A stretch of 64,000 nt of DNA from an uncultured Gemmatimonadales bacterium (GTDB lineage Bacteria > Gemmatimonadota > Gemmatimonadetes > Gemmatimonadales > Gemmatimonadaceae), in the NCBI GenBank assembly GCA_963851265.1, contig CAWKNZ010000007.1, positions 576,001-640,000 on the forward strand, given 5' to 3'. This document shows, in pieces, positions 3,717 to 64,000 of this stretch (position 1 is the stretch's first letter; each line of letters begins with the position of its first letter). The position numbers and the translations under genes are program-made. The notes below the pieces were generated by a model. That model was not told the origin of the DNA and searched no databases. It saw nothing but the letters and a program-made list of their open reading frames with translations.

Positions 3717-6089
3717 TCATGGCGTGAGCAGGACGAGCGCGCGGAGCGTGGCTCGCGCGGCCGTCCGATCTCCCTCGTTGCCGGACCCAGCCGCCGCGGC
3801 GAGTCGGACAGCGGCCGCCAGCCATTCGGCGTCGCTGGTCGCGCTGCGTCCGGCATCGTCTCGGGCGTCGCGCGCCACGTTCCGGAGGGCGGCCTCACGC
3901 TCGGCGCTCAGCGGTCGGGCGAGAGCGGCACGTAGGGCGCCCGCGGCGGTGGACGTGAGCGCGCGCTGGTCGGGCGCCGCGGTCTGGAGCGCACGGGTGG
4001 CGCGGGCGAGGATCGCGGCGCGCGGGTCGCGCCCGGCGTCGCGGGTACGATCGGCACTACGGACCGCGGCGCGCGACGGCGCGATCGCGCCATGCACGAG
4101 TTGGTGCCGCGCCCAGCGAGCGAGTGCGCGGCGGGCCGCTGCCACGTGGTGCGGCGACGGCGTGACCGACGCGTCCGCGCGCGCGAGGGCCGCGAGGGCG
4201 CGGCGCACCGTGTGAGGCGCGCTCGTCGGGCCGCGAGTACGCAGGGCAGCGACGAGAGTGGGCACGTGAAGCGCGCCCAGTCGTGTCGGAAGGGCGACGA
4301 CGGCGAGGTAGCCCGACGCACCGCAACGGACTGCCGCAATCACGCGCGCGTTCGACGTCGGTCGCCCTTCGCACCGCGTCGCGCTCGGCGGCTCCTGCCA
4401 CGCGCTCCAGCGTTCGAGCAGGCGGTCGCGGGCGAGTTCGGCGACGGCGGCGGTGGTGACCGACGTGAGCGTGGCGCCATGACTGGCGCGGCGACTGTAC
4501 GGCGCGACGCCGCGCTCGAGCGCGCTCGCCCCGACGGTCTGGTCGGCGGCGCGGCACTTGCCGCGGGCGTGGGCGGCCAGGCGGAGTTCGCGCGCGAGGG
4601 CGGGCGGGGGGCGGAACGCGTGCACGTAGACCGTGGCGGCGGGCGCGCCTGGGCGGACGGCGCGACCGGTGCGCTGGGCGAGGCGGGCGGGGGTCCACGG
4701 GAGGTCGAGGTGGACGACGACCGACGCGTCGCGGAGGTCGAGCCCTTCGGAGAGCACGTCGGTGGTGAGCAGCAGGTCGATGCGCTCGATGTCGGCCGGC
4801 GGCGCGCAAGCCTGGCCTAACGGGGCGAAGCGCGCGAGCACGTCGGCCCGTGACAGTCGGCCCGAGGCGATACGGCCGCCGCCGGCGGTGAGCATCGCGA
4901 CCCGGCCGTCGGGGGCGAGGGCCGCGTACAGCGCGCGGACGGTGTTGGCCGAGTGGCTGAATGCGACGATGCGCGTGCCCGGGTGGCGGGCGCGGATCGC
5001 GCGCAGGTGGGCGACTCGCTGCGCGTCTCCGGCGGCGCGCGCGAGCAGGGCCACGACGCGGCGCAGGGCGGCGACATGCGCGCCGATCTGCGCGCGGGCG
5101 ACCTCCGGTGCTGGGCCGTCCAGCGCGGCGGGGACGAGTGAGAGTTGGACGGTGGATGCGTCGGTGTCGAGGGTGCGGGTGAGCGCGTGCAGATCGGCAC
5201 GCGTCGGGTGGTGGCCCGCGTCGAGTGCGTCGCTGACGGCGAGGGCGCGCGCGAGTCGGCGGCGCACGGCCCTGCGGAGCGCGGCGTCGCTCGACGCCCA
5301 GAGCCGGACGAGCGTGTAGCGGTCGAGGTCGGGTGTCGGCGAACCGTCGGCGGGTACGACGGCAGGTGGGAGGGTGCGGAGCGCGTCGAGCACGTCTGGC
5401 GCCTCGTCGAGGTCGATCCACGACGTTGGCGCGACGATCGGGCGGTCGGCGGGCGGTTCGCCGCCCGTGCCGTCGCGTACGTCGGCGGCCGAGCGACGGA
5501 CGACGAGGCGGGCGAGGGTGGAAGCGTCGAGGGTGCGGCCGCGCGCACCGAGTGTGAGGGCGAACAGCGCGGCGAGGTCCTCGGCACGGTTGTGGACCGG
5601 CGTCGCGGTGAGGAGCAGCAATCGACCGTTGGCGACGAGTGCGGCGAGCGCCTGCCAGCGCCGGGTTCGCGGGTTGCGGAAGTGGTGCGCCTCGTCGACG
5701 ATGACGAGCGGTGGCGTAGCGGGGCCGCGCGGCGGGTCGCGGCCGAGTGCTTCCGTGGAGACGAGATCGCGGGCGAGTCCGGCGGCGTGGAGCGCGGCCG
5801 CCCAGTGGGCCCGGAGCGCGGCGGGCGCAACGATCACCGCGTCGGCCGCGTCGCGGGCGAGGGCGAGCGCGACCGCGGTCTTCCCGAGTCCGACGTCATC
5901 GGCGAGGAGGGCCACGCCGTAGTGGCCGAGGGCGTAGCGGAGGCGTGCGGCGGCGTGGCGTTGGTGCGGTCGGAGCGTGAGCGGTCCTACCTGCACGTCT
6001 GCCGCGCGTGGGGCGAGGCCGAGTGCTGCGCGGGCGAGGCGGGCGCGGATGGCTGCGGGCGGGGGTGGAGCATCGCCGGCGTGCGTCAT
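3717..6089 (-). CDS. SNF2-type superfamily 2 helicase/translocase
   Basis: Motifs LADDVGLGKT, DEAHHFRN, LLTATP, TTDVLSEGLDL, QRTGRAVR; ATG at 6089 overlaps the MTase stop (ATGA), so the 1413-aa ORF call is over-extended. Confidence 0.88.
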   Translation of the reverse strand: MTHAGDAPPPPAAIRARLARAALGLAPRAADVQVGPLTLRPHQRHAAARLRYALGHYGVALLADDVGLGKTAVALALARDAADAVIVAPAALRAHWAAALHAAGLARDLVSTEALGRDPPRGPATPPLVIVDEAHHFRNPRTRRWQALAALVANGRLLLLTATPVHNRAEDLAALFALTLGARGRTLDASTLARLVVRRSAADVRDGTGGEPPADRPIVAPTSWIDLDEAPDVLDALRTLPPAVVPADGSPTPDLDRYTLVRLWASSDAALRRAVRRRLARALAVSDALDAGHHPTRADLHALTRTLDTDASTVQLSLVPAALDGPAPEVARAQIGAHVAALRRVVALLARAAGDAQRVAHLRAIRARHPGTRIVAFSHSANTVRALYAALAPDGRVAMLTAGGGRIASGRLSRADVLARFAPLGQACAPPADIERIDLLLTTDVLSEGLDLRDASVVVHLDLPWTPARLAQRTGRAVRPGAPAATVYVHAFRPPPALARELRLAAHARGKCRAADQTVGASALERGVAPYSRRASHGATLTSVTTAAVAELARDRLLERWSAWQEPPSATRCEGRPTSNARVIAAVRCGASGYLAVVALPTRLGALHVPTLVAALRTRGPTSAPHTVRRALAALARADASVTPSPHHVAAARRALARWARHQLVHGAIAPSRAAVRSADRTRDAGRDPRAAILARATRALQTAAPDQRALTSTAAGALRAALARPLSAEREAALRNVARDARDDAGRSATSDAEWLAAAVRLAAAAGSGNEGDRTAARATLRALVLLTP

Positions 6090-9511: not shown

Positions 9512-9646
9512 GCCGCGACGGTAGGGCGCGCGCCGCGGAGCGAGGAGGGCGGAACGTTGCGCCGTGGGCCAGAATTTCGCGCGGACGTGCGGGCGGGCCC
9601 GCGGCGGTCCCGTTAGGCGCTACCGGCGGGCGTCAGCCCGCCGCCC

Positions 9647-12310: not shown

Positions 12311-12667
12311 ATGAAGACCGCCGCCGACCTCATCACCGAAGCCAGGTCCCGAATCCGCGAAGTGTCGCCAGCCGACGTGCAGGCGATGCGCGACCGGGGC
12401 GAGCCCGTCACGCTGCTCGACGTGCGCGAGCCTAACGAATGGGCGATGGGGCGCGTGCCCGGCGCGCTCACCATCGCGCGCGGCCTGCTCGAGTTCTCGG
12501 TCGAGGCGCGCGTGCCGCGCGACGCGCGCGTGGTGGTCTTCTGCGCCAGCGGCGGCCGCTCGGCCCTCGCCGCCGAAACGCTCGCGCAGATGGGTTACAC
12601 GGACGTGGCCTCGATGCGCGACGGGATCCGCGGGTGGGCCGACACGGGGGGCGAGATCGCGACGTGA
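12311..12667 (+). CDS. Rhodanese-like domain protein
   Basis: LLDVREPNEW, GRVPGA, FCASGGRS, GIRGW. Confidence 0.9.
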   Translation: MKTAADLITEARSRIREVSPADVQAMRDRGEPVTLLDVREPNEWAMGRVPGALTIARGLLEFSVEARVPRDARVVVFCASGGRSALAAETLAQMGYTDVASMRDGIRGWADTGGEIAT

Positions 12668-13504: not shown

Positions 13505-15346
13505 ATGCCGTTCCGCTCGGACCTGCTCCACCGCGCGCGCGCCTTGCGCGCGCGGCTCCTTCGCGCGCGCCCTGCCGGCGCACACGTCCGGCGCGCCGCC
13601 ACGATCGCCGCCGGCGCGGCCCTGCTCGCGGCCGCGTGCTCCGACCACACGACGGGGCTCGCGCCCGCCACGCCGACCGGCGCGGGCACGGGCGCCCCCG
13701 ACGCGACCGCGGGCGGCACGAGCGTCGTCGCCGTGCAGGTGCCGGCCTCGATGCGGTCGGCGCCGTTCGACGTGGCTCGCACGCTCGCGGTGCCCAACGG
13801 GTACACCGTCGCGGTCTACGCACGCGTGGGCGGCGCGCGCTTCATGGCGACGGCGCCTAACGGTGACCTGCTCGTCTCGAATCCCGGCGCGGGCAACGTC
13901 TACCGCGTGCGGCCCGGCGTGAACGGCGCCGACCCGACCGTCGCCGCGTGGGCGTCGGGACTCAACCAGCCGCACGACATCGTCTTCCACGGGATCGGCG
14001 GGACGATGTACGTCTACGTCGCCGAGACCGACAGGATCGCCCGGTACACGTGGGACGCGGCGAGCGCGACCGCGCAGAACCGCCAGGTGCTGATCACCGG
14101 CCTGCCGAGCGTGAGCGACACGGCACTGCACGGCGCCTACGCGCACCAGCTCAAGAACATCGCGCTCGGCCCCGACGACAAGCTGTACGTGTCCATCGCG
14201 TCGTCGTGCAACGCGTGCGTCGAGGACACGCGAAGCAATCCCGTGCGCGGCGCGATCTACGTGTACAACGCCGACGGGACCAACGGGCAGATCTTCGCGC
14301 GCGGCATCCGCAACGCCGAGGGCCTCGCCTTCGTGCCGGGCACGAACACGCTGTGGGCCGTGGTGAACAACCGCGACAACACCGCCTACCCGTTCCACCA
14401 GGACTTCGACGGCGACGGCCGCGACGACTACGGCAAGGTGATGCCCGCGTACGTCGACAACCACCCGCCCGACGAGTTCCTCCACGTCACGAACGGGGCC
14501 AACTTCGGCTGGCCCTTCTGCAATCCCGACCCCGACGCGGGAGTCGACAACATGCCGTTCGACCGCGACGTGCAGCTCAACGCCGACGGCAGTCAGCTCG
14601 ACTGCGCCAACGTCGCCACGCGCGTTAACAAGGGGATCCAGGCCCACTCGGCGGCGCTCGGTCTCACCTTCTTCTCGGGCACCCGAGCGCCGGCCGCGCT
14701 GCAGGGCGGGGCGGCGGTGGCACTGCACGGTTCGTGGAACCGGTCCACGCCGACCGGCTACAAGGTGGTGTGGTTCCCGACCGACCCGGGCACGGGAACG
14801 CCCGGCGTGCAGGAGGATCTCGTGAGCGGGTGGCTCGTGGGCGGGTCGGCGTGGGGGCGCCCCGTCGACGTCGCGGTCGATGCCACGGGCGGCGTGCTCA
14901 TCTCCGACGACCAGAGCGGGACCATCTACAGACTCGCGCCGCAGGCCGCGGCCGCGAAGGCGCTCGCCGGCCGCCAGTCGGGGCTGTGCCTCGACGTGAG
15001 CGGCGCGTCGCAGACCAACGGCTCGCGGACGATTCTCTGGACGTGCTACCCGGGCTCCAGTCAGCAGTGGGTGTTCCCGGCGGTCGGGACCACGGGCACC
15101 ATCCGCGTGTACGGCGCCAAGTGCCTCGACGCGCTGTGGGGCGGCACGCACGACGGCGAACCCGTCGGCATCTGGGACTGCTGGGGGGGAGTCAACCAGC
15201 AGTGGACGGTCAGCGCGGCGGGAGACGTGATCAACGCCGCGACCGGGCGCTGCCTCGACGCCACGGACTTCGGGACGCGCGCGGGGACGGTGCTGCAGCT
15301 GTGGACGTGCTACGGCTCGCTCAACCAGCGGTGGGACGAGGAGTGA
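13505..15346 (+). CDS. Lipoprotein: PQQ-dependent sugar/sorbosone dehydrogenase beta-propeller fused to a C-terminal ricin-B lectin domain
   Basis: Lipobox LAAAC; GLNQPHDI, GIRNAEGLAF, QAHSAALG, LHGSWNR, GRPVDV, ISDD; three CLD...QxW ricin repeats. Confidence 0.85.
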   Translation: MPFRSDLLHRARALRARLLRARPAGAHVRRAATIAAGAALLAAACSDHTTGLAPATPTGAGTGAPDATAGGTSVVAVQVPASMRSAPFDVARTLAVPNGYTVAVYARVGGARFMATAPNGDLLVSNPGAGNVYRVRPGVNGADPTVAAWASGLNQPHDIVFHGIGGTMYVYVAETDRIARYTWDAASATAQNRQVLITGLPSVSDTALHGAYAHQLKNIALGPDDKLYVSIASSCNACVEDTRSNPVRGAIYVYNADGTNGQIFARGIRNAEGLAFVPGTNTLWAVVNNRDNTAYPFHQDFDGDGRDDYGKVMPAYVDNHPPDEFLHVTNGANFGWPFCNPDPDAGVDNMPFDRDVQLNADGSQLDCANVATRVNKGIQAHSAALGLTFFSGTRAPAALQGGAAVALHGSWNRSTPTGYKVVWFPTDPGTGTPGVQEDLVSGWLVGGSAWGRPVDVAVDATGGVLISDDQSGTIYRLAPQAAAAKALAGRQSGLCLDVSGASQTNGSRTILWTCYPGSSQQWVFPAVGTTGTIRVYGAKCLDALWGGTHDGEPVGIWDCWGGVNQQWTVSAAGDVINAATGRCLDATDFGTRAGTVLQLWTCYGSLNQRWDEE

Positions 15347-15457: not shown

Positions 15458-16915
15458 ATGCCTACGCCCGTCCACGACGTACCCCCGTCCGAGTCCGGCG
15501 CGCCGGGCGTCGACGCGACTGACTCGCCCGACGCCCGGGCGCTCGACCCCGACGCGCCCGACCCCGACGCGCCCGACCCCGACGCGGCGACCGAGTCGGG
15601 GTGGCGGCGCGCGCGCCTCACGCCGTCGCTCGAGGAGGCGTACCGCACCGTACCGGTCGTCGGCACGACGTGGTTCCGCAAGCTGCTCGCCTTCGCGGGC
15701 CCCGGCTACCTGGTCGCCGTCGGCTACATGGACCCGGGCAACTGGGCGACCGACCTCGCGGGCGGCTCGCGCTTCGGCTACACGCTGCTCTCGGTCGTGC
15801 TGCTGTCGAATCTGATGGCGGTGCTGCTCCAGGGGCTCGCCTCCAAGCTCGGCATCGTCACCGGGCGCGACCTCGCGCAGGCGTGCCGCGACCACTACTC
15901 GCGGCCGACGTCGATCACGCTCTGGGTGCTGGCCGAGATCGCCATCGCCGCGTGCGACCTGGCGGAGGTGATCGGGTCGGCGATCGCGCTCAACCTGCTG
16001 TTCCACCTCCCGATCACGTTAGGCATCCTCGTCACGGCGGGCGACGTGCTGCTCGTGCTCGGGCTGCAGCACCGCGGGTTCCGCTGGCTCGAGGCGGTGG
16101 TGGTCGCGCTCGTCGCGACGGTGGGGGTGTGCTTCGTCTACGTGCTCGTGGCCAGCCGCCCCGACTACGCGGGCGTGCTGCGCGGGTTCGTGCCGTCGCC
16201 CGCGATCCTGCGCAACCCCGAGATGCTCTACATCGCGGTGGGCATCCTCGGCGCGACGGTGATGCCCCACAACCTGTACCTGCACTCGAGCATCGTGCAG
16301 ACGCGCAAGTACGCGCAGACGGCCGCGGGGCGGCACGAGGCGGTGCGGTACGCCTTCCTCGACTCGACCATCGCGCTCTCCGCGGCGCTGTTCATCAACG
16401 CGGCCATCCTGATCGTCGCCGCGGCGACGTTCCACCGCGCGGGCTACACGCAGGTGGCCGAGATCCAGGACGCGCACCGGCTGCTCACCCCGCTGCTCGG
16501 CGCGTCGGGGGCGAGCGTCGCGTTCGCGCTCGCGCTCCTCGCCAGCGGGCAGAACTCGACCCTCACCGGGACCCTGGCCGGGCAGATCGTGATGGAAGGG
16601 TTCCTCGACGTGCGACTACGCCCGTGGGTGCGGCGCCTCATCACGCGGGGACTCGCGATCGTGCCCGCGGTCGCGGTGAGCATCGTCGCGGGCGAACGCG
16701 GCACCGCCCAGCTCCTCGTGCTGAGCCAGGTCGTGCTCTCGCTGCAGCTGTCGTTCGCCGTGGTGCCGCTCGTGCGGTTCACGAGCGACCGCGCCAAGAT
16801 GGGCCGGTTCGTCAACGCGCCGTGGCTCACGGCGACGGCGTGGGTCACGGCGTTCGTGATCGCGGCGCTCAACGCGTGGCTGCTGCTGCAGACGGCGCGC
16901 GGGTGGTTCGCGTGA
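15458..16915 (+). CDS. mntH: Nramp-family divalent metal (Mn2+) transporter
   Basis: [16 protein letters not shown] and [13 protein letters not shown] signatures. Confidence 0.95.
15544..15586 (+). repeat. 15-bp tandem repeat (about 3 copies, encodes DPDAP) in the MntH N-terminal extension
   Basis: cgaccccgacgcgcc repeated. Confidence 0.7.
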
Positions 16916-18094: not shown

Positions 18095-18153
18095 TCCGGC
18101 CGCACCGCCGCGCCGCCCGGCCGACCGTCGCGCGCCTAACGGCAGCGGCGGTC

Positions 18154-18990
18154 GTGCCCCTGGCCGCCCTCGCTGCCGCGGCGGCTCCGGCGCGGGCGCA
18201 GATCGACACCGCGGCACCGCCCCAGCCGGTCCGCACGATCGCGGCCGACGAACGGCTGCGCACCGACGCGGGACTGCGAGTGGGCGACACCGTCCTCCTC
18301 ACAGCGCGCGCGGGGGACACGGCCCGCGCGACGCGCGCGGTCGTCTCCGCGTTCGTCGAGCGAGGCGCCGACCCCAGCGAGATCGCCCGCAGCGAGTACC
18401 GCGTACGTCTCCACCTCGACGTGCTGCAACAGGTGGGCGCCTACGCGGACCGGGTGGACCGCTTCGCGGTCGGGACGCGCCCGGGTCGAACGGACGCCGC
18501 CGTCGCCGCGATCAACGAGCCCGCGTTCGGGTTCCGCGCCTACCGCTCGGCCGACGTCGCGGTGGGCACGTCGCGCACCTTCGAGGTCGTGCGCCGCTTC
18601 CACCGCGCCATCGGCGTGATCACGGTCGTGGCGAGCGCGATGTTCCTGCTGTGCATCCTCGTGCTCAAGGTCGAGGAGCGTCGGCGCGACGTGGCCGCGC
18701 TCCGGCTGATGGGCCTGTCGCGGCGCACGGTCGTCGGCGCGCTCGTGCTCGAGGCCGCACTCGTCGCGCTGCTGGGCTCCGCCGCGGGGCTGGTCGTCGG
18801 GTCGATCGCGGCGCGCTTGGTCAACTGGCACTACCAGGCCGCGTTCCGCACGCCGCTGGTGTTCGTGCTCGTCACACCCGGCGTCGCGCTCTTCGCCACG
18901 AGCCTCTCCGTCGCGCTCGGCGTCGGCGCCGGCTTCCTCGCCGCGCGGCGCCTCGCCAACGCGGCCCCGCTCGCCCTGCTCGGGCGTTAG
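18154..18990 (+). CDS. ABC transporter permease, FtsX/MacB C-terminal half with a signal peptide (lacks TM1)
   Basis: Signal-like APARA-Q; GLRVGDTV periplasmic motif; VEERRRDVAALRLMG...LEAALV FtsX motif; start uncertain. Confidence 0.8.
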   Translation: MPLAALAAAAAPARAQIDTAAPPQPVRTIAADERLRTDAGLRVGDTVLLTARAGDTARATRAVVSAFVERGADPSEIARSEYRVRLHLDVLQQVGAYADRVDRFAVGTRPGRTDAAVAAINEPAFGFRAYRSADVAVGTSRTFEVVRRFHRAIGVITVVASAMFLLCILVLKVEERRRDVAALRLMGLSRRTVVGALVLEAALVALLGSAAGLVVGSIAARLVNWHYQAAFRTPLVFVLVTPGVALFATSLSVALGVGAGFLAARRLANAAPLALLGR

Positions 18991-19007
18991 GCAGGCGGCG
19001 GGCGACC

Positions 19008-25240: not shown

Positions 25241-25278
25241 GCTACGTTAGGCGGCCCGCTTGGAACGCCTAACGTAGC
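25241..25278. repeat. 13-bp perfect inverted repeat built from two GTTAGGC motif copies (possible terminator)
   Basis: gctacgttaggcg-12 nt-cgcctaacgtagc, about 50 bp downstream of the 25330 stop. Confidence 0.8.
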
Positions 25279-38467: not shown

Positions 38468-38482
38468 CGTTCCCGGACGCCC

Positions 38483-43485: not shown

Positions 43486-43518
43486 AATCGGCCGCGGCGG
43501 TTAGGCGTGCCGTGGTGA

Positions 43519-48572: not shown

Positions 48573-50729
48573 ATGCCGCGTTTCAACATGTTCCGCCGCC
48601 GCGCCGCCGCGCCACACGCCGCCCTCACCGTGTGGGCCGACGGCGCGATCGGCAAGGTCCACCGGCACGACCTGCGAAAGAGCCACGTCGGCGTCCCGGG
48701 CGCGCAGCCATTCGCCAACGTCGTGTGGAACGACGCTACCGGTCGCGTAACGACCCACGGCGCACGCAACGAATACGGCGCGCTATTCAGTCTGCACATC
48801 GAGAACGCGACGACCACGGACGTCGCAGGCGTGAGCGTGACGATGACGCCACTCGTCGGGCCGAACGGGGCGGCGTTGCGCGGTACACCGGCGACGATGT
48901 CGGGGTTAGGCACCGACCCCGCGTCACAGCGCGAGCGCGGGCGTCGGCTCATGTTCTATACCGACCGCGACGTCGAACTCTTCGTGGTGCGCTACCTGCC
49001 CGTGCGCGGGCTCTCGATGTTCGGAACGGGCGACGTCGGCAAGCCGCCCGAGATCGTCGGGAGCCGATTCCGCCGGCGTCCGCCCGGCAACGACTGGTTC
49101 TCGCGCCCCGACCACGACACGTGGTACCCGGAGCCGTGCATCCCGCACGAACTCGTCCCGACGTTCACGGTCGCCGCCGGCACGCAGCAGGAGGTCCTCG
49201 TCGCGGCCTACGTGGGCGCGGACCAACCGGCCGGCGTGTACAGCGGCGCGGCCGAGGTTCGCGTCAACGGTGCCGTCGTGCGCACGATCCCCGTGTCGCA
49301 CACCGTCCACGCGCTCACGCTTCCCGACACGCCGCACCTCGGCACGATGCTCTCGGTGTCGAGCGCGCAGATCTCGGGCCGCATCGGCGGCGCGTTCTAC
49401 GCGGGCGATCCGGGGGTCATCAGCGACACGCTTTTCCGCGCTGGCACGCTGCTCCACCGGCACAAACTCACCGCGACGCTCGACACCGGCGGCTACAACG
49501 ACACGCCCACCGGCGTCAATGGCGACGCGCAGTGGGGCCCGGCGCAGGCGCTACTCCTGTCCGGGAACGGCTGGCGGACCGGTGATCCCGTCCACGGCTA
49601 CCGGGGGCCCGGCGCGGGGTTAGGCACCGGTCTGTTCGTCGACGGACACTGGCACCAGTCCGCGGGCGTGTCGCAGACCGGCCCGTACTCGGCGGCCGAC
49701 CAGGCCAAGCTCCAGGCGTACGCGACGCGCACCGTGCACGCGGTCGAGCTGCACGCCGGGCGTACGCCGACCACGTGCGTGGCCTACATGTACGATGAAC
49801 CGCCGGACTCGGCGATCGCGGGCATCCAGGCCGCGAGCGCGGCGTTCCACGCCGTCACCGGGCCGGGACGGCGGTTCAAGACGTTCTGTACCACGTGGGT
49901 GTGGCGCGTCGGCGCGTTGCCCGACCTCGACGTGTTCGCGACGAGCGGCTTCTTCAACTGGTCGATGGACGGTAAGAACCCCTACACGAACCACGTCGCG
50001 TGGATGCGCGGGAACGGACACCAGGTCTGGACCTACGACGGCCCGCGCCCCGAAGGTGGCGACTGGCACCTCGAAAGCCCCGGCGTCGATCCGTTGGTCA
50101 TGATGTTGAACTGCGGGCGGATCGGCGTCGAGCGGCACTTCTTCTACGAGGCGACGTACTATTTCGACTTCCAGAACTACGGGTCGGGCCCGTACGCGGT
50201 GGGACGACCGCACCTCGCCATCACCCAGCTCTGGGACGACGCGCAAAACTTCCAGGGCGGCAACGTCAGGTTCAACAGGTCGGTCGGGATGTCGGCCAAC
50301 GCCGCGAACCCGGGGTTCGCGAACACGTCGAATCTGGACGGAATCCTGATCTGGCCGGGGATCGACGTGCACGCGCACGACCAGGCGCGCGACAACTACC
50401 AGGCCGCCACGGTGTTCCCGGGCAAGCGCCTGTTCGCGATCAGTCGGGGCGTGCAGCTCGTCGATTACTGGCAGGCCGCGCGCGCGGTCGACGCCCCTGC
50501 GGCCGATGCCGTGCTCGACACCGTCGCGCCGGGCGGCTGGTACCAGCACTGGGAGCACTTCCACCGGTGGGGCGCGCAGGCGTCCAACAACGACCCGTTC
50601 GCGTTCCCGGGCGCGTACGGCTTCGACCCCGTGACACACCAGAGCCCGTTCGCCGCCCGCTGGAGCGAGGACCCGGACGTCGCCGAAGCCGCGCGCCGCC
50701 GTTGGGCCGCGATTGCGACGCGACGGTAG
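48573..50729 (+). CDS. DUF4091/GH123-like putative glycoside hydrolase
   Basis: GARNE N-terminal motif, PAGVYSG, YMYDEP acidic pair, DGILIWPG...KRLFAISRGVQLVDY C-terminal motif. Confidence 0.6.
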   Translation: MPRFNMFRRRAAAPHAALTVWADGAIGKVHRHDLRKSHVGVPGAQPFANVVWNDATGRVTTHGARNEYGALFSLHIENATTTDVAGVSVTMTPLVGPNGAALRGTPATMSGLGTDPASQRERGRRLMFYTDRDVELFVVRYLPVRGLSMFGTGDVGKPPEIVGSRFRRRPPGNDWFSRPDHDTWYPEPCIPHELVPTFTVAAGTQQEVLVAAYVGADQPAGVYSGAAEVRVNGAVVRTIPVSHTVHALTLPDTPHLGTMLSVSSAQISGRIGGAFYAGDPGVISDTLFRAGTLLHRHKLTATLDTGGYNDTPTGVNGDAQWGPAQALLLSGNGWRTGDPVHGYRGPGAGLGTGLFVDGHWHQSAGVSQTGPYSAADQAKLQAYATRTVHAVELHAGRTPTTCVAYMYDEPPDSAIAGIQAASAAFHAVTGPGRRFKTFCTTWVWRVGALPDLDVFATSGFFNWSMDGKNPYTNHVAWMRGNGHQVWTYDGPRPEGGDWHLESPGVDPLVMMLNCGRIGVERHFFYEATYYFDFQNYGSGPYAVGRPHLAITQLWDDAQNFQGGNVRFNRSVGMSANAANPGFANTSNLDGILIWPGIDVHAHDQARDNYQAATVFPGKRLFAISRGVQLVDYWQAARAVDAPAADAVLDTVAPGGWYQHWEHFHRWGAQASNNDPFAFPGAYGFDPVTHQSPFAARWSEDPDVAEAARRRWAAIATRR

Positions 50730-50823: not shown

Positions 50824-52515
50824 ATGCGGCCCGCCCAGCTCGCGCGCCACTTCACCGCCTCGCTCGCGCTGTACGCGGGCGCTGCCGGCGCGCAGCGCCG
50901 CGACCACACCCAACACGAAGCCGTGGTGGCCGCGCAGGCGATTACCGGCGACGCCATGCTGCGCGACATCCGCGCGCTCGCCTCGGATGCGTTCGAAGGG
51001 CGCGCGCCCGGAACCCGCGGCGAGGATTCCGCGGTCGCCTACATCGCCGCGCGGTTCCGGGCGATCGGCCTCGAGCCCGGCGCCGCCGACGGCACCTTCT
51101 TCCAGGCCGTCCCGCTCGTCGGGACGACGTCGACCGTGCGCGCGTCGGCGAAGGTCGCCGGCCAGACGACGGTGCTCCGCCCGCTCGACGACGTCGTCGC
51201 CTGGTCCATGCGCCCAGACACGCTCGTCACCGTGCCCGCCTCGGATCTGGTCTTCGTCGGGTACGGCGTCGTCGCGCCCGAGTACAACTGGGACGACTTC
51301 AAGGGCGTCGACGTGCGCGGGAAGACGGTCGTGATGCTCGTCGGCGACCCGCCCGTGCCCGATCCGCGCGACAGCACGCGACTCGACCCGCGCGTCTTCC
51401 GCGGCGCGGCGATGACGTACTACGGGCGCTGGACCTACAAGTACGAGACCGCCGCCGCGCGCGGGGCTGCGGCCGTGCTGCTCGTTCACCAGACCGGACC
51501 GGCCGGCTACGGCTGGGGCGTCGTGCAGAGCAACGCACACGAGAAGTTCGAGGTCGAGGGGGGCCCGGCGCACGCCGCGGTCGAGGGGTGGTTGCAACTC
51601 GACGTCGCCCGCCGCCTGTTCGCTGCCGGCAGCCACGACTTTCGCGCCCTCGAGCGCCTCGCGCGCACCCGCGAGTTCCGCCCCGTCCCCCTCGGTGGCA
51701 CCGCCGAGTTCCGCGTGCAGAACGCGGTGCGGCGCGTGCGGTCGCGCAACGTCGTCGCGCGGCTCGACGGGGGCGACCCGGCGGTACGCGACCAGTACGT
51801 GCTGTACTCCGCGCACTGGGACGGCTACGGCGTCGGGCGCCCCGTCCGCGGCGACTCGATCTACAACGGCGCGCTCGACGACGCGTCGGGCGTCGCGTGG
51901 GCGCTCGCCACGGCGCGCGCCTTCCGCGCGCTCCCCCGCCCGCCGCGGCGCACGGTCGTCTTCGCGGCGTTCACCGCCGAAGAGCAGGGGTTGTTAGGCG
52001 CACGCTACTACGCGCAGCACCCGCCGTACCCGCTCGCGCGCACGCTCGCCGACGTGAACATGGACATCATGAACCCGTGGGGGCGCACGCACGCGCTCGT
52101 CAGCATCGGGTACGGCCTGAGCACGCTCGAAGACCTGCTCGCGCGCGAGGCCCGCGACGACGACCGTACGGTGCGCCCCGACCCCGAGCCCGAGAAGGGC
52201 TACTTCTACCGCGGCGACCACTTCGAGCTCGCCCGCCACGGCGTGCCGGCGCTCGCGTTCCTCTTTCCGGGGGCCGAGTACGTCGGGAAGACCACGGCGT
52301 ACGGGCCGCGCGTGCGCGCCGCCTACGTCGCCAACGACTACCACAAGCCGTCGGACGAGGTGAAGCCCGACTGGGACACCTCGGGCTTGGTCGACGACAC
52401 GCGGCTCCTCTTCCGCGTCGGGCTGGACGTGGCCGACGGAGAGGTATGGCCGAACTGGAAGCCCGGAACCGAATTTCGTGCGACGCGCGATGCGATGCTG
52501 CGCCGCCGACCATAG
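50824..52515 (+). CDS. M28 family metallopeptidase with PA domain
   Basis: LASDAFEGR, VFVGYG, SAHWD, NGALDDASG, AEEQGLLG, NMD, GDH, YHKPSD. Confidence 0.93.
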   Translation: MRPAQLARHFTASLALYAGAAGAQRRDHTQHEAVVAAQAITGDAMLRDIRALASDAFEGRAPGTRGEDSAVAYIAARFRAIGLEPGAADGTFFQAVPLVGTTSTVRASAKVAGQTTVLRPLDDVVAWSMRPDTLVTVPASDLVFVGYGVVAPEYNWDDFKGVDVRGKTVVMLVGDPPVPDPRDSTRLDPRVFRGAAMTYYGRWTYKYETAAARGAAAVLLVHQTGPAGYGWGVVQSNAHEKFEVEGGPAHAAVEGWLQLDVARRLFAAGSHDFRALERLARTREFRPVPLGGTAEFRVQNAVRRVRSRNVVARLDGGDPAVRDQYVLYSAHWDGYGVGRPVRGDSIYNGALDDASGVAWALATARAFRALPRPPRRTVVFAAFTAEEQGLLGARYYAQHPPYPLARTLADVNMDIMNPWGRTHALVSIGYGLSTLEDLLAREARDDDRTVRPDPEPEKGYFYRGDHFELARHGVPALAFLFPGAEYVGKTTAYGPRVRAAYVANDYHKPSDEVKPDWDTSGLVDDTRLLFRVGLDVADGEVWPNWKPGTEFRATRDAMLRRRP

Positions 52516-54468: not shown

Positions 54469-55551
54469 TCAGAGCGCGTGCGCCCGGAACAGCGCCACGC
54501 GCAGCGCGCCGCGGTCGGCCGCGCGCGCCGCGTCCCAGTCGCCGGCGATCGCCGCCCCGTGGCGCGCCGCGTCCGCCGCGAGCGCGTGCCAGCCGAGCCG
54601 GCCGCGGCGCCGCGCGTCGCTGAGCTGCCAGAAGGGGACGAGATCGGCGAGTGCGACGAGGTCGGCGAGCCGGGCCGGCGCGTCGGGCGCGGGGGAGGGA
54701 AGGGGCGCGCCTTCGCCCGCGTGCCCGGCGAGCAGGTGTGCGAGCGCGACGCGCGTCGTGAGGCGCCGCTGGTCTTCGGTCGCGCCGCCCGCGCGCAACA
54801 GCCGGTGGCGACCGACGAGCGGCGGCGTGAGCATCATGCGCGTGCCCGCCGGCACACCGGGCACCGCATGGACCGCGACGCCGTGGCGGCGCAGAAGGTC
54901 GTCGGCGCCCGCGTCGTCGAGCGGGGCGAACAGGCCGTCGTAGCGGGGCGCGGCCGTCTGCAGCTCGCGCACGAGCTCGGCGGCGTGCGCGACCAGCGCC
55001 GCGTCGTCCGTGGCGTGCGCCGGGACGTCGGACGGCACGTCGGGGGCGCCCACGGCAATCGGCCTGTCGAACTCGCCGCGGGCGGCGCGCGCACGGAGAT
55101 CGTGCGCGCCCGGGGGGAGCACGCGCCCGCCCTCGCGCGCGGCGGCGGCCGCGACGTCGAGCACCGCGCGGCGGAGCGCCGCGGCCGTGGCGTCATCGCC
55201 CGCGACGGCGCGCATCGTCGCTTCGAGCAGGGCGACGACGGTCGGCGCGGGGTCGGCGGCCGACTCGGTGCGCGCTGGCGAGGGCCCGCCTGCGGCCCCG
55301 GCCGCCGACGTGCGTCGGAGCGCCCGCACCGTTCCCGCGTCGAGCCCGAGCGCGGCCGCGAGCACGGGCACGTGCTCCGCGGCGAGCAGGGCGGGGCGCG
55401 CGAGCGCGGCCCGGAGGCCGGCGACCGTTAGGCCGAGCGCGTCGGCGAGCTGGCGCGCGTCGAGGTCGCCGAGCTCGGCCGCGGCGTCCAGCCGTTCGAC
55501 GAGCGACGGGGCGGCGGGGAAGGAGCGGCTGGCGGCTGAAGGCGCGGACAC
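54469..55551 (-). CDS. Hypothetical protein with an N-terminal HTH-like region and a degenerate ImmA/IrrE-like C-terminus
   Basis: RQLADALGLTVAGL...LAAALGLD; QRRLTTRVALAHLLAGH; start uncertain. Confidence 0.5.
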   Translation of the reverse strand: MSAPSAASRSFPAAPSLVERLDAAAELGDLDARQLADALGLTVAGLRAALARPALLAAEHVPVLAAALGLDAGTVRALRRTSAAGAAGGPSPARTESAADPAPTVVALLEATMRAVAGDDATAAALRRAVLDVAAAAAREGGRVLPPGAHDLRARAARGEFDRPIAVGAPDVPSDVPAHATDDAALVAHAAELVRELQTAAPRYDGLFAPLDDAGADDLLRRHGVAVHAVPGVPAGTRMMLTPPLVGRHRLLRAGGATEDQRRLTTRVALAHLLAGHAGEGAPLPSPAPDAPARLADLVALADLVPFWQLSDARRRGRLGWHALAADAARHGAAIAGDWDAARAADRGALRVALFRAHAL

Positions 55552-55663: not shown

Positions 55664-56467
55664 TCAGGCGCGCGTCCGCTCCGCGACGGCCGCGCCCATC
55701 CGCGGCACCACCGCACCCGCCCCGGCGCCGTCGGCGTCCTCGACCCCGCGCTGGCCTAACGCACGGATCGCCTCGCGGTACCCGCCCAGCGTGCCCACGT
55801 CGACGTACGTCTCACCGGCGCGCACCCCGACCGCGCTCCCGCCGCGCGCGAGCCAGGCGTTGACGAGAGTCCCGAAGTACTCGTCCGCCTGCTCGCGCGC
55901 GAGCCACAGGTCGTGCAGCTCGCGCAGGATCGCGCCCGTGAGCTTGAACGCCCCCCACACCCACGGCGTGCTCGCCCCGGGCTGCTTGACCTGGATTTCG
56001 ACCACGGCGCCACCCGCGTCGGTGACCACGGCGTCGAACACCTCGGGGCGTTCGACGGGGAAGAGCAGGAATGAGAGCCGGTCGTCGGGGAGCGCGCGGA
56101 AGCCGTCGACCGGGAACCACACCGTGTCGGGGAGCCCCACGAGCACCTGGTCCTCGGGCGGGATCATCGGCAGCGCGCGGAAGAGCGCGTCGCAGAGCCC
56201 GGCCGGCTGCGGCTGCACGGTGAACGACACGTGCGCCTGGCACGCAGACCCGCCGTAATACGCGAGGATGTCGGCCTTGCCCGGCGAGACGACGAAGCAG
56301 ATGCGCGTGGCCCCGCCGCGCACCATCCGTTCGACGAGGTACTCGCTCACCGCGCGCGGCCGCTCGACGCCGTGGTCGACGCGGCTGCCCACGGGGAGCA
56401 GTTCCTTGGAAAAGGCGAGCGGCTGGATGCGCGTCCCCGCACCGGCCGCGGGAATGATGCCCCACAC
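55664..56467 (-). CDS. Sugar-phosphate nucleotidyltransferase
   Basis: GIIPAAGAGTRIQP...SKELLP, QPAGLCDA, YVDVGT. Confidence 0.9.
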   Translation of the reverse strand: MWGIIPAAGAGTRIQPLAFSKELLPVGSRVDHGVERPRAVSEYLVERMVRGGATRICFVVSPGKADILAYYGGSACQAHVSFTVQPQPAGLCDALFRALPMIPPEDQVLVGLPDTVWFPVDGFRALPDDRLSFLLFPVERPEVFDAVVTDAGGAVVEIQVKQPGASTPWVWGAFKLTGAILRELHDLWLAREQADEYFGTLVNAWLARGGSAVGVRAGETYVDVGTLGGYREAIRALGQRGVEDADGAGAGAVVPRMGAAVAERTRA

Positions 56468-56471
56468 GGGG

Positions 56472-57614
56472 TCAGCCCCCCCCGGCGACCGCCGCGGCGA
56501 GCGCGCCCGCGGGCGGGTCGCCTAACGGAACGCCGCCGGCCGCGGACTCGATCGCCGCCACGAGCTCTCGCGCGCGCCGGTCGGCGGTGTGCTCGTCGAG
56601 GGTGCGCTCGCGGGCGCGCCGCGCGATCTCGCGCAATTCGGCGTCGGGCCGGGCGAGCGCGGCCATCGCGTCGTCGGCCGTGCGGGCGAGGAGGATTTCG
56701 TCACCGGGGGTGAAGAAGGCGTCGAGCCCGTCCCACGTGTCGGTGAGGATCGGCACGCCGCACGCCGCCGCCTCGAACAGCCGCCCCGACGGGCACCAGC
56801 CCATCGCCGCCATCGCGCCGCGCGTGGTGTTGAGCGTGAGGCGGCTGGAGGCGTAGAACGCGGGGTGGTCGGCGGGCGGCAGGTGCGCCAGGTACCACGT
56901 GTTGGGCGTCCACGCGAAGTCGGCCGGGTACTGCGAGCCCGCGAGCATGAACCGCGTGTCGGGGCGCCGGCGCGCGGGCTCCAGAAAGAGCGCGTCGACC
57001 GCGGCCTGGCGGTCGGCCGCGTAGGTACCGATGTACGACAGGTCGCACCGCCACGCGTCGCGCGGCGCGGCGGGACGGTGCACCGCCGGATCGACCGACC
57101 CGTACAGCGGGGCCACGCGCCGCGCGCCGAGTCGCGTGCGGAGTGCGTCGAGCGCGCGGCCACCGGTGTAGCTGAGCACGAGGTCGAACGCGCCCAGTCC
57201 GTCGGTCGGCAGATAGGGCACGCGCTCGCCCGCGTCGAGCCGCGCGAAGGTGACCGGCGTGTCGAGGTCGTAGAAGGTGGCCAGCGGAGCGCCGCGGTTC
57301 GCCTCGCGCGCGTGAAGCATGAGCGCCGCGGCCTCGGTCGCGTCGGGGCAGTACGACGTGGTCATCGCCACGTCCGCGTCGTCGAGCGCGCGGCGCGCGC
57401 GATCGCGCACCGCCTCCCACGACGGATACAGCACGAGTTCGCCGCGCGGAAGTTCGGTGACGTCGCGGTGGGCCGCGTAGTACGACACGTCGCGTTCGAA
57501 GAACGTGACCGAATGTCCCTGACGGGCGAGCGCGTGGATCAGCGCGCGCCAGAGCGTGGCGTGCCCGTTGCCCCACGACGAACTGACCGTGAGTCCAAAG
57601 ACTACGAGTCGCAT
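56472..57614 (-). CDS. CgeB-family glycosyltransferase (GT-B)
   Basis: FGLTVSSSWGNGHATLWR, FYDLDTP, YIGTYAADR, SGRLFEAAACG, EHT..RA. Confidence 0.9.
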   Translation of the reverse strand: MRLVVFGLTVSSSWGNGHATLWRALIHALARQGHSVTFFERDVSYYAAHRDVTELPRGELVLYPSWEAVRDRARRALDDADVAMTTSYCPDATEAAALMLHAREANRGAPLATFYDLDTPVTFARLDAGERVPYLPTDGLGAFDLVLSYTGGRALDALRTRLGARRVAPLYGSVDPAVHRPAAPRDAWRCDLSYIGTYAADRQAAVDALFLEPARRRPDTRFMLAGSQYPADFAWTPNTWYLAHLPPADHPAFYASSRLTLNTTRGAMAAMGWCPSGRLFEAAACGVPILTDTWDGLDAFFTPGDEILLARTADDAMAALARPDAELREIARRARERTLDEHTADRRARELVAAIESAAGGVPLGDPPAGALAAAVAGGG

Positions 57615-60052: not shown

Positions 60053-61035
60053 CGGCAGGCGGGCGCGCGGCGGCCGCGACCGAGGCCGCCGTCCTCGCCG
60101 CGCCCGGCGTGGTGCGCGTCGAGGCGCAGGCGCTCCGCGAGCCCGGGCCGGGCGAGGTGCGCCTGCGCCTCGAAGGGAGCGGCGTGTGCGCGTCCAACCT
60201 GCCGATGTGGGAAGGGCGCGAGTGGTTCACCTACCCCGCGCCTCCGGGGAACCCCGGACACGAGGGGTGGGGCACGGTCGACGCGTTAGGCGATGGCGTC
60301 GCGGGCGTGGCGCCGGGGCAGCGCGTCGCGGCGCTCTCGTACGCGGCGTACGCCACGCACGACGTCGCGAAGGCCGACGCGGTCGTGCCGCTCCCCGCCG
60401 CCCTCGACGGACACGCCTTCCCCGGCGAGCCGCTCGGCTGCGCGCTCAACATCTTCGCGCGGGCCGACGTGCGCCCCGGGCAGGACGTCGCCGTGGTCGG
60501 CGTCGGCTTCCTCGGCGCCCTCCTCTGCCGCCTCGCGGCCAACGCGGGCGCGCGCGTGATCGCGGTGTCGCGGCGCGCGTTCTCGCTCGACGTGGCCCGC
60601 CAGTTCGGCGCGCACGACGTGGTGCCGATGGACGACCACGGCCGCATCGTCGGGCGCGTCAAGCAGCTGACGGGCGGGAAGTTCTGCGAGCGCGCGTTCG
60701 AGTGCGTCGGCCTGCAGTGGCCGCTCGACCTCGCCGGCGAGCTCACGGCGGAGCGCGGGCGGCTCGTCGTCGCGGGCTTCCACCAGGACGGGCCGCGGCA
60801 GGTGAACATGTTCCTCTGGAACTGGCGCGGGCTCGACGTGATCAACGCGCACGAGCGCGACCCGGCGGTCTACGTCGCGGGCATCCGCGCCGCGGTCGAG
60901 GCGGTGGCGTCGGGCGCGCTCGACCCCGCGCCGCTCTACACGCACCGGTTCCCGCTCGACCGGTTAGGCGAGGCGCTGGAGGCGACGCGCACGCGGCCCG
61001 ACGGGTTCCTCAAGGCGCTGGTGACGACGGGGTGA
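60049..61035 (+). CDS. Zn-dependent medium-chain dehydrogenase
   Basis: GVCASN, GHEGWG, EPLGC, VVGVGFLG. Confidence 0.9.
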   Translation: MTAGGRAAAATEAAVLAAPGVVRVEAQALREPGPGEVRLRLEGSGVCASNLPMWEGREWFTYPAPPGNPGHEGWGTVDALGDGVAGVAPGQRVAALSYAAYATHDVAKADAVVPLPAALDGHAFPGEPLGCALNIFARADVRPGQDVAVVGVGFLGALLCRLAANAGARVIAVSRRAFSLDVARQFGAHDVVPMDDHGRIVGRVKQLTGGKFCERAFECVGLQWPLDLAGELTAERGRLVVAGFHQDGPRQVNMFLWNWRGLDVINAHERDPAVYVAGIRAAVEAVASGALDPAPLYTHRFPLDRLGEALEATRTRPDGFLKALVTTG

Positions 61036-62633
61036 GGCTGCGCGCGGCGCTGTGCGCTGCGGCGTGCGCCGCGGTGGGGGCGACGGCGAGCGCGCCGGCG
61101 CGGGCACAGGCGCCGGCCGCCAGCACGGCGGTCACGGTCGCCCGCGTGCGCGCCTGGCGCGCCGGGCACGACCACGAGGTGCTGCGCGAGTTCGCCGACC
61201 TGCTCGCGATCCCCGACCTCGCCAGCGACTCGGTCGGGATCCGCCGCAACGCGGCCGCGATCGTCGCCGCGCTCGGGCGGCGCGGTGTCGCGGCCCGCCT
61301 GCTCGAGAGTCCGACCGGCGGCCCGCCCGCGATCCTCGGCGAGCTCCGCACGCCCGGCGCGCGCCGCACGGTGGTGCTCTACGCGCACTACGACGGACAG
61401 CCCGTCACCCCGGCCGACTGGGCCACCCCGCCGTGGACGCCGACGCTGCGCGACGGCCCGCTCGACCAGGGCGGGCGCGTCGTGCCGCTCCCCGACCGCG
61501 CGGGCGCGACGGGCCCCGAGTGGCGCCTGTACGCGCGCGGCGCGGGCGACGACAAGGCGCCGATCGTGGCCGCGCTCGCGGCGCTCGACGCGCTGCGCGC
61601 GTCGGGCGTGCGCCCGTCCGTCAACCTCAAGTTCTACTTCGACGGCGAGGAGGAGGCGGGTTCGCCGCACCTCGCGCCGCTGCTCGCCCGGTACCACGAC
61701 GCGCTCGCGGCCGACGCGTGGCTGTTCGCCGACGGGCCCGTACACCAGTCGCGTCGCCAGCAGGTGCTGTTCGGCGCGCGCGGCGTGACAGGGTTCGAGC
61801 TGACCACCTACGGGCCGCTCCGCGCGCTGCACTCGGGGCATTACGGCAACTGGGCGCCCAACCCGATCGCCGAGCTGGTGGCGCTGCTGGCCGGCATGCG
61901 CGACGCCGACGGACGCATCCTCATCGCGGGGTTCGCCGAGGCGACGCGGCCCGCGACGGCCGCCGAACGCGCCGCGCTGGCCGCGGCGCCGAGCCCGGAC
62001 TCGGCCCTGCGCGACCAACTCGCGCTCGGGCGCACCGAAGGCGGCGAGACGTTAGGCGAGTCGCTCCTCCGGCCGGCGTTCAACCTCCGCGGCATCCGCG
62101 GCGGGGCGGTGGGCGCGGCGGCCGCCAACGTGGTGCCGACCGAGGCGACCGCGAGCGTGGACCTGCGGCTGGTCCCCGACCTCACCCCCGCGCGCGCGGA
62201 GAGCCTCGTCGTCGCGCACCTGCGGACGAAGGGGTACCGGGTGGTGCGCGAGGCGCCCGACGCCGCGACGCGCCGCCGCGAGCCGCATCTCGTGCGCCTC
62301 GCCTGGGAGCGGAGCGGCTACGCGGCCTACCGCACGGCGATGGACGCGCCGGCGGGGCGCGCCGTGCTCCGCGTGCTCGCCGACGCGCAGGGGCGCCCCC
62401 CGATCGCCGTGCCCTCGTTAGGCGGGAGCCTCCCGCTCGCGGTCTTCGGCGACGCGTTCGGGGCGCCGGTGGTGGTGCTGCCGATCGCGAACCACGACGA
62501 CAACCAGCACGCGGCCAACGAGAACCTGCGCCTGCAGAACCTCTGGGACGGGATCGACGCGCTCGCCGCCCTGTTCGCGGGGCTCGGGACGGCGTGGCCG
62601 TCGACGGTCGAGCCGTCCGCGGTCCGGCCATGA
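61032..62633 (+). CDS. M20/M25/M40 family metallohydrolase with a signal peptide
   Basis: APARA-Q signal; YAHYDGQP, ARGAGDDK, GEEEAGS, LHSGHYG, NQHAANEN. Confidence 0.92.
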   Translation: MRLRAALCAAACAAVGATASAPARAQAPAASTAVTVARVRAWRAGHDHEVLREFADLLAIPDLASDSVGIRRNAAAIVAALGRRGVAARLLESPTGGPPAILGELRTPGARRTVVLYAHYDGQPVTPADWATPPWTPTLRDGPLDQGGRVVPLPDRAGATGPEWRLYARGAGDDKAPIVAALAALDALRASGVRPSVNLKFYFDGEEEAGSPHLAPLLARYHDALAADAWLFADGPVHQSRRQQVLFGARGVTGFELTTYGPLRALHSGHYGNWAPNPIAELVALLAGMRDADGRILIAGFAEATRPATAAERAALAAAPSPDSALRDQLALGRTEGGETLGESLLRPAFNLRGIRGGAVGAAAANVVPTEATASVDLRLVPDLTPARAESLVVAHLRTKGYRVVREAPDAATRRREPHLVRLAWERSGYAAYRTAMDAPAGRAVLRVLADAQGRPPIAVPSLGGSLPLAVFGDAFGAPVVVLPIANHDDNQHAANENLRLQNLWDGIDALAALFAGLGTAWPSTVEPSAVRP

Positions 62634-63808: not shown

Positions 63809-64000
63809 GTGCGCCTCCTCCTCACCGCCGACGCCGTGGGCGGCGTGTGGCCCTACGCGCTCGAACTCGCCCGCGCGCTCGCCCCGCGCGGGGTCGAGGC
63901 GCACGTGGCCGTGATGGGGCCGCCGCCTAACGCCGAGCGGCGGGCGGACGCCGCGCAAGCTGGCGTCGCGCTGCACGCGGGCGAGTTCGCGCTGGAGTGG
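63809..64000 (+). CDS. Glycosyltransferase family 4, N-terminus (partial)
   Basis: RLLLTADAVGGVWPYALELARAL...VMGP; runs off the window. Confidence 0.8.
   Translation, partial: MRLLLTADAVGGVWPYALELARALAPRGVEAHVAVMGPPPNAERRADAAQAGVALHAGEFALEW

Follow-up and report, generated by a model that had tools for sequence, protein, structure and literature searches.

The genome of an uncultured Gemmatimonadales bacterium carries a short DNA word, GTTAGGC (complement GCCTAAC), in far more copies than expected, written through genes and spacers alike. We read the word, in the form (C/T)GTTAGGC(G/A), as a self-tag resembling the DNA uptake sequences of other bacteria, kept up by a transfer-and-recombination drive with a dedicated reader; this is a tentative reading, to which we give somewhat less than an even chance. 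The word was noticed in a window of 64,000 nucleotides, C7:576001-640000 of an assembly of 4.60 Mb, 73% GC and 12 contigs. G000 denotes this source genome, C1 to C12 its contigs, and G001, G004, G012 and similar handles its relatives. A preliminary description of the window had proposed a lineage-restricted signal at the level of DNA rather than a protein motif, and had suggested uptake, a link to methylation or the binding of a nucleoid protein as its function.

All 33 copies listed in that description were found again at their positions, 17 on the + strand and 16 on the - strand. In 100 dinucleotide-preserving shuffles of the window the mean was 1.87 copies (standard deviation 1.27, largest 6), and 0/100 shuffles reached 33. 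The position preceding the word (-1) is C in 26 of the 33. By our own gene calls, 20 copies lie in genes as xxG-TTA-GGC, 4 as xxG-CCT-AAC and 1 as xGC-CTA-ACx, while 2 form stop codons and 6 are intergenic, which agrees with the frames described earlier (mostly TTA-GGC, also CCT-AAC, CTA-AC and stops); the two stop codons, a TAG ending at 18990 and a TAA ending at 38467, had been read correctly. Across G000 the word occurs 1,762 times (885 forward, 877 reverse) and ranks first among all 7-mers by its excess over Markov models of orders 1, 2 and 3 (expected 160, 96 and 127; observed/expected 11, 18 and 14). It contains 1,762 of the 2,470 TTAG tetramers of the genome, and 1,000 of the 1,307 TTA codons precede GGC. 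The preliminary description had also considered that the excess might vanish under a codon-preserving null or prove to be an assembly artefact. The enrichment survives when synonymous codons are permuted inside each gene, a procedure that leaves both the protein and the codon counts of that gene unchanged, TTA included: the window coding sequences gave 1.08 ± 1.09 copies (maximum 5 in 200 shuffles) against 24 observed, and those of the genome 73.9 ± 6.9 against 1,290 (17x). An assembly artefact is excluded by the enrichment of the same word in many independently assembled relatives.

Genes in G000 were called by codon-usage log-odds (3,833 genes, 89.4% coding), and 73% of the copies lie inside them: 991 as sense xxG-TTA-GGC, 200 as antisense xxG-CCT-AAC, 75 as antisense xGC-CTA-ACx and 24 as sense GTT-AGG-C. 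The two reading frames that would make stop codons inside genes hold zero copies. When copies are set against the sites at which the protein sequence would allow them, occupancy is 7.7% for sense x-Leu-Gly (991/12,799), 10.6% for antisense x-Pro-Asn (200/1,895), 3.9% for antisense [CRSG]-Leu-Thr (75/1,911) and 0.7% for sense Val-Arg-x (24/3,550). The 79% sense bias is thus explained by dipeptide supply and is gone once available sites are counted. Occupancy reaches 16.4% (778/4,756) at Ala-, Pro-, Thr- or Ser-Leu-Gly, which gives the preferred C at -1. The other 472 of the 1,762 copies (27%) are intergenic or at gene edges, on 10.6% of the DNA, and the word takes in 130 of 459 TAA stop codons (28%; GCC-TAA-C) and 83 of 778 TAG stop codons (GT-TAG-GC).

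Intergenic, sense and antisense copies have the same flanks, with C (77–85%) or T (7–17%) at -1 and G (52–56%), A (22–24%), C (18–21%) or T (4–5%) at +7; no conservation was found around the copies beyond these two positions. Within the word the specification is very sharp. Among the 16 variants of GTTRRRY, GTTAGGC alone is strongly enriched (18x; the others 0.4–2.2), and only the -1 position is exempt from this sharpness, C and T being equally enriched there (28x and 26x). The identical flanks, the occupancy in sense and antisense, the stop codons and the codon-shuffle null bear out that (C/T)GTTAGGC is a DNA-level signal and no protein motif.

The same counts dispose of a signal in translation, in which TTA-GGC would be a selected codon pair. 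It is true that 991 of the 1,762 copies are in-frame TTA-GGC, but antisense Pro-Asn sites are occupied equally or more often, intergenic and gene-edge DNA holds more than a quarter of the copies on about a tenth of the sequence, the flanks do not differ between classes, and the tRNA-Leu(UAA) of G000 is an ordinary, single-copy gene. We regard this reading as refuted and give it practically no probability. As to the codons around the word, CTG-GGC occurs 909 times against 6,515 for CTC-GGC, with overall counts of 44,399 CTG and 76,988 CTC, so that CTG-GGC is relatively four-fold rarer; TTG-GGC has 484 copies in G000. These counts are consistent with a route CTG-GGC to TTG-GGC to TTA-GGC that feeds the word.

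The layout of the copies along the chromosome has no replication polarity. In 50-kb bins the strand bias of the word tracks gene strand (rho 0.56) and not GC skew (rho 0.007), while the strand of intergenic copies follows neither. From a 5.3-Mb contig of the enriched relative G059 we took 23 samples, each of 20 kb; they held 156 forward and 144 reverse copies without a replichore-scale switch. The strand-skew check proposed in the preliminary description thus found no polarity in either genome. An apparent all-plus run of copies in genus g58 was due to listing order: a 100-kb piece of G067:C2 carries the word 27 times on the forward and 20 times on the reverse strand. The copies are spaced more evenly than chance: gaps of at most 400 bp number 133 against 250 expected and gaps of at most 100 bp 26 against 66, with an excess of middle distances. 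Density is highest in convergent spacers (1.23 per kb), followed by tandem spacers (0.56), divergent spacers (0.33) and gene interiors (0.31).

Among genes, the word follows the GC content of third codon positions (GC3). With motif-type sites left out of the GC3 measure, occupancy at Leu-Gly climbs from 3.5% in the genes of lowest GC3 to 24.9% in those of highest, and at Pro-Asn from 5.1% to 15.3% (Spearman 0.38). Density goes up as well, from 0.086/kb at the low end of GC3 to 0.486/kb at the high end, GC3 being only a proxy for foreignness. This rise is seen although the word itself sets A or T at third codon positions, and it is in keeping with a process tied to homologous recombination or to long residence in the genome.

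The longest word-free stretch of G000, C1:182876-227962 (45 kb; genome-wide probability about 6e-5), spans gidA-parA-parB-mnmE, and dnaA lies inside a second word-free gap of 15 kb, C1:2107-17073. The parB region holds 51 copies in 80 kb in G059, 32 in G138 and 35 in G125, which is near-normal, and about half the genome mean in G001 and G004. We therefore reject a conserved word-free zone at the origin or parB, as it does not hold outside the genus. Consensus-pattern scans for DnaA boxes and parS gave no match.

The distribution of the word among relatives was surveyed in 151 genomes of the family and in a 201-genome sample of the phylum. The reversed word served as control for copy counts, and genomes with at least 2x control were called enriched in the family survey; the phylum sample was scored with the 8-mer (>2x control), and genomes flagged as unpublished enter the tallies solely as non-enriched rows. 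All five genomes of the source genus are enriched (977–3,304 copies against 187–365 of the control). In the family 27/151 genomes are, several with 5,000–7,800 copies, whereas most others are strongly depleted, with 10–100 copies against 200–1,200 for the control. Both states can occur in a single genus, in which G068 has 5,926 copies, G168 6,209 and G126 99; sampled sequence of equal GC from that genus agrees, with 48 copies in 43 kb for the enriched and 2 in 61 kb for the depleted state. In the phylum sample, 5/39 genomes of this family (G000 included) and 2/96 of the sister family, both in one genus, were above threshold, as against 0/66 from ten other families. G040, from a third family of the same order, is also enriched. 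The lineage restriction suggested earlier is therefore borne out, as enrichment in part of one order among the genomes sampled. Enriched genera share the core and differ slightly in flank preferences.

Individual sites turn over fast. G168 keeps the word at 12/16 aligned G068 sites (82–87% DNA identity), while G126 (70–77% identity) has it at 0/12 and shows ordinary CTG/CTC-GGx instead. In the source genus (~84% identity) 2/14 aligned sites share the word in all three species compared, two sites being not alignable in G004. The 13 readable non-word states in the genus differ from the word by one base in 2 cases and by two or more in 11. Sites thus switch between two states, the complete word or GC-optimal codons, and intermediates are few, a pattern that would reflect two opposed pressures.

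A match that the preliminary description had missed is that the word is spelled exactly as the core of integron attC and attI sites. One account (PMC12901181) gives, in its accessible part, RYYYAAC as the consensus of the R'' box of attC and GTTRRRY as that of the R' box, places the crossover behind the first G, and shows GCCTAAC as the R'' box of an attC site; GTTAGGC is an exact instance of GTTRRRY and its complement of RYYYAAC. Integrons have been reported from Gemmatimonadota, according to the portion available of PMC8618304. G000 has an integron integrase gene, intI, on C6, the N part of which scores 311 bits against TIGR02249; it is split by a ~2-kb insertion with a large serine recombinase (Resolvase, Recombinase and Zn-ribbon domains; C6:2951-6230, loci L021, L022, L026). 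Twelve attC sites are recognisable in G000, at C10:193.8-212.1 kb and at C6:925 and C6:1592, and the finder probably misses further sites within the array. Their boxes read GCCTAACGCC ... CGTTAGGC, with the exact word, C at -1, in 14 of 24 boxes; GTTGGGC, GTTAGGT, ACCTAAC and GCCCAAC are used as well. About 14 of the 1,762 copies lie inside recognisable attCs; the genome-wide copies otherwise lack the paired, imperfect R''-L''...L'-R' hairpin (50–150 bp) or the attI next to intI that mark integron sites. Non-enriched relatives have attCs with the same boxes, the word included, and in G027 many of the 151 copies lie within cassette arrays. Beyond the 3' end of intI on C6 of G000 follow small same-strand open reading frames (ORFs), one of which encodes a BrnT-type toxin, and attC sites lie in between.

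Of the three functions offered in the preliminary description, uptake fits best, although no reader protein was found for it. The pattern resembles that of the uptake signal sequences (USS) of Pasteurellaceae and the DNA uptake sequences (DUS) of Neisseriaceae. Like these, GTTAGGC is a short, asymmetric and far over-represented word in hundreds to thousands of copies, balanced between strands without polarity, placed within genes wherever the coding permits, more frequent behind genes, scarce in atypical (here low-GC3) genes and variable between lineages; USS are also evenly spaced. The copy number, too, is comparable: the available part of one survey gives 1,471, 765 and 1,892 copies per genome for known uptake words, with 65%, 49% and 34.5% in ORFs (PMC2817400), against 1,762 copies and 73% here. 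Transformation machinery is present, as G000 has ComEC, a ComEA-like protein and a PilQ-like secretin; pilin genes and an AddAB-like pair were found as well. Soil populations including this phylum recombine, and natural competence has been suggested as a route, in the accessible text of PMC7305173.

We infer a drive through uptake or transfer together with a dedicated reader protein. Some protein would read the exact double-stranded word during gene exchange within the lineage, most likely at DNA uptake in natural transformation. Word-bearing DNA would be passed on more often, and homologous recombination would then install the word in the recipient. Such a drive would write the word where the protein stays unchanged, that is at Leu-Gly, Pro-Asn and x-Leu-Thr, in TAA and TAG stops and in the spacers after genes, and would work against the strong push of the genome for G or C at third codon positions.

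Several observations weigh against the self-tag. Neisseria terminators carry inverted pairs of the uptake word, unlike G000, where opposite-orientation pairs within 100 bp number 9 genome-wide (6 of them '-+'), one being the pair in the window. One-mismatch variants of CGTTAGGC are not enriched (0.1–2.3x expectation), and a stepwise uptake drive might leave more of them. The word is built on the rarest Leu codon, TTA, in contrast to known uptake sequences, whose frame choice is correlated with preferred codons in the part of PMC2817400 available to us; as a 7–9 bp word in a 73% GC soil genome of another phylum it also departs from USS and DUS. In a panel of 17 enriched and 16 depleted genomes, picked by copy count and compared for gene presence, the uptake machinery is found in enriched and depleted genomes alike (ComEC 32/32, ComEA-like 31/33, PilQ-like 33/33), and a full-length FimT-like minor pilin occurs in 7/17 enriched and 7/16 depleted genomes. 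ComP, a minor pilin, is the Neisseria uptake receptor; a search for its family, ComP_DUS, gave weak generic N-terminal pilin matches in the 33 genomes, with 1/33 over the cut-off, and that genome is depleted. No tested candidate (ComEC, ComEA, PilQ, FimT-like, ComP_DUS, the Eco57I-like methylase or IntI) tracks enrichment. We know of no identified uptake receptor in Pasteurellaceae, so the failure to find a receptor of the ComP type does not exclude an uptake sequence. Competence is not shown for this group in the open-access literature searched, and a plain uptake model leaves the identity of the word with the integron core unexplained, a feature in which it again differs from USS and DUS.

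That identity could be accounted for if the self-tag had been borrowed from the integron, which we consider unlikely. A receptor for the word would harvest cassette DNA from the surroundings, and in lineages with an active receptor the same preference, exerted on DNA from like cells, would spread the word through the genome as a by-product. Such a receptor would select cassette DNA because the word is otherwise almost confined to attC in this order, depleted genomes having 10–100 copies, many of them in arrays; the borrowing would also explain the identical word in distant genera. In Vibrio cholerae, recruitment of cassettes from transforming DNA has been demonstrated experimentally, according to the accessible part of PMC12614218. 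If true, the borrowed tag would link natural transformation with the capture of integron cassettes by way of a single word common to both.

Apart from any self-tag, the integron might act on the word directly: IntI or another integron component would read solitary words as R-box or attG-type secondary sites and so keep or spread them. The exact core spelling, the word-bearing attCs of G000 and of non-enriched relatives, and the location of many of the few copies of depleted genomes in cassette arrays (G027) argue for this, and a reader conserved across the order would explain the same word in distant genera. Insertion of cassettes by IntI at short genomic GWT sites, called attG, is described in the available part of bioRxiv 10.1101/2022.09.11.507474, attG needing GWT only, unlike the 7-bp word. 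The likeness to attC and attI is one of spelling, including the pyrimidine at -1 of this clade's attCs, and of company, integrons being present in G000 and most relatives. Unlike attC, however, the genome-wide copies are solitary, have no L boxes or hairpin and sit inside ordinary genes, and few lie in recognisable attCs. Nor does enrichment track IntI, which was compared for presence, integrity and phylogeny without any association with the trait: 15 of the 29 enriched genomes and 26 of the 39 depleted ones have an uninterrupted IntI over the cut-off (p 0.32, uncorrected for kinship), and the labels of the two groups are mixed across a tree of 35 IntI sequences, with 11 changes against a shuffled mean of 11.9. 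The intI of G000 is split, G001 and G012 have IntI fragments only, variants that attC tolerates are not enriched genome-wide, and the known IntI reaction would offer no route to write a lone word into a gene. On balance a direct role of the integron seems to us quite unlikely. We give a similarly low probability to a cis-acting chromosomal site, bound by a nucleoid-associated or chromosome-organising protein with each copy under selection. Seven sharply specified positions, spacing more even than Poisson and the word-free parB and dnaA regions of G000 would suit such a site, but some 6,000 against 99 copies within one genus are hard to fit to essential architecture, sites turn over fast between species, the parB gap is near-normal in copy density in G059, G138 and G125, and the seven-fold GC3 gradient has no obvious architectural reason.

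An account through methylation is improbable as well. Here a methyltransferase of asymmetric sites would mark the word, whose abundance would then be upheld by biased repair or by some process that depends on the methyl mark, perhaps uptake; methylation-linked upkeep has been proposed for cyanobacterial HIP1, likewise a hyper-abundant short word running through genes, with debated reader and function. The window encodes an Eco57I/MmeI-type methylase beside an SNF2-type helicase ORF (Table 1), enzymes of this type read asymmetric 6–7 bp sites, so that it is an attractive candidate reader, and the sharpness of the word is like that of a methylase target. However, this methylase is present in 33/33 family genomes (46–78% identity), enriched or not. 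Family searches, used for methylases and pilins in G000 where regular expressions had returned mostly unrelated proteins, found no Vsr, no C5 methylase and no PF01555 methylase in that genome. Its two other N6_Mtase (type I-like) loci, C7:771474-772495 and C9:923-1858 near contig ends, lie in pieces in different frames and are probably pseudogenes. These methylase results weaken the methylation option of the preliminary description. To arrive at the word, the usual codons have to undergo GC-to-AT changes, some of them transversions, which runs counter to T:G-to-C:G patch repair. HIP1, moreover, is palindromic and methylase-linked, whereas GTTAGGC is asymmetric and shows no matching methylase pattern. 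Very improbable, in our view, is a Chi-like or KOPS-like (FtsK orienting polar sequence) role, in which a helicase-nuclease or FtsK would read the word, perhaps shielding incoming linear DNA. Chi and KOPS are over-represented oligomers read by repair and segregation motors, the AddAB-like pair of G000 consists of PD-(D/E)XK ORFs, and a Chi that protects incoming fragments would also bias transmission. Yet Chi and KOPS are skewed with replication direction and GTTAGGC is not, neither in G000 nor in G059, with a 27/20 split also in G067:C2; RecC was not found in G000, and the enrichment is far above the level known to us for Chi.

To our knowledge sequence-specific DNA uptake is known from two proteobacterial families only. 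If the self-tag reading is true, GTTAGGC would be a third case, in an abundant and little-cultivated soil phylum, and would offer a direct means of studying how genes are exchanged in soil. The word is sharp, on or off between close relatives and identical to the integron core, and these three properties bring two questions within reach of testing: the nature of the reader of uptake-type words, and the way in which integrons come by cassette DNA. In practical terms the word can further serve as a strong marker of lineage, both in binning and in detecting foreign DNA in these genomes. In the open-access literature searched no uptake sequence is reported for Gemmatimonadota. The word and its 7-mer relatives occur there in three papers, of which two have no bearing on the subject and one is the integron account (PMC12901181). 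The word is not described in the available parts of two papers on the phylum, on integrons (PMC8618304) and on competence (PMC7305173).

The copies in the window are listed in Table 1, in which the inverted pair was read off the sequence and not folded. The match to the methylase is broken near residues 507–545 or has one in-frame stop in many genomes and is one open frame in the source genus.

Table 1. GTTAGGC copies (7 bp) and two genes in the window, in window coordinates. Leu-Gly, sense xxG-TTA-GGC; Pro-Asn, antisense xxG-CCT-AAC.
Feature	Position	Strand	Context	State in G001 and G004
SNF2-type helicase ORF after methylase	frame ending at 3717 (3717-9511 region)	-	helicase domains	
Eco57I/MmeI-type N6-adenine methylase, 1,141 aa	6086-9511	-	followed by the SNF2-type helicase ORF	
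Copy	4815..4821	-	sense Leu-Gly, SNF2-helicase-like gene	
Copy	9612..9618	+	intergenic	
Copy	12430..12436	-	antisense Pro-Asn	
Copy	13855..13861	-	antisense Pro-Asn	
Copy	16018..16024	+	sense Leu-Gly	
Copy	18134..18140	-	intergenic	
Copy	18986..18992	+	TAG stop of + gene 18154-18990 (GT-TAG-GC)	
Copy	20443..20449	+	sense Leu-Gly	
Copy	20779..20785	+	sense Leu-Gly, T at -1	
Copy	23381..23387	-	sense Leu-Gly	
Inverted pair	25242..25277	25246 + and 25267 -	intergenic; perfect 12-bp arms 25242-25253 and 25266-25277; 12-nt spacer	
Copy	28499..28505	-	antisense Pro-Asn	
Copy	29084..29090	-	sense Leu-Gly, T at -1	
Copy	30673..30679	-	sense Leu-Gly	
Copy	33013..33019	+	sense Leu-Gly	
Copy	34032..34038	+	sense Leu-Gly	
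Copy	34756..34762	-	sense Leu-Gly	
Copy	38462..38468	-	TAA stop of + gene 37886-38467 (GCC-TAA-C)	
Copy	43500..43506	+	intergenic, G at -1	
Copy	45233..45239	-	intergenic	
Copy	46397..46403	-	sense Leu-Gly	
Copy	48905..48911	+	sense Leu-Gly, G at -1	
Copy	49619..49625	+	sense Leu-Gly, G at -1	
Copy	51993..51999	+	sense Leu-Gly, T at -1	
Copy	55427..55433	+	antisense xGC-CTA-ACx	kept in G001, GTGAGAC in G004
Copy	55754..55760	-	sense Leu-Gly	kept in G001 and G004
Copy	56520..56526	-	sense Leu-Gly	site gapped in G001 and G004
Copy	60285..60291	+	sense Leu-Gly	kept in G004, GTTGGGC in G001
Copy	60963..60969	+	sense Leu-Gly	kept in G001 and G004
Copy	62051..62057	+	sense Leu-Gly	GCTCGCC in G001
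Copy	62417..62423	+	sense Leu-Gly	kept in G001
Copy	63925..63931	-	antisense Pro-Asn	kept in G001, GGTCGGG in G004

No other hyper-abundant word, or dialect, was found in samples of 40–100 kb from G009, G014 and G126. In G005, which shows no GTTAGGC enrichment, an 8-mer containing GATAGACG occurs in 14 copies per 100 kb against 1.4 expected (loci L006-L010) and may be a weak second over-represented word. Finally, L060:15589-15713 of G068 is a repeat of ~125 bp with inverted halves that has dozens of matches on many contigs of G168 at 85–98% identity, and it looks like a small mobile element family.

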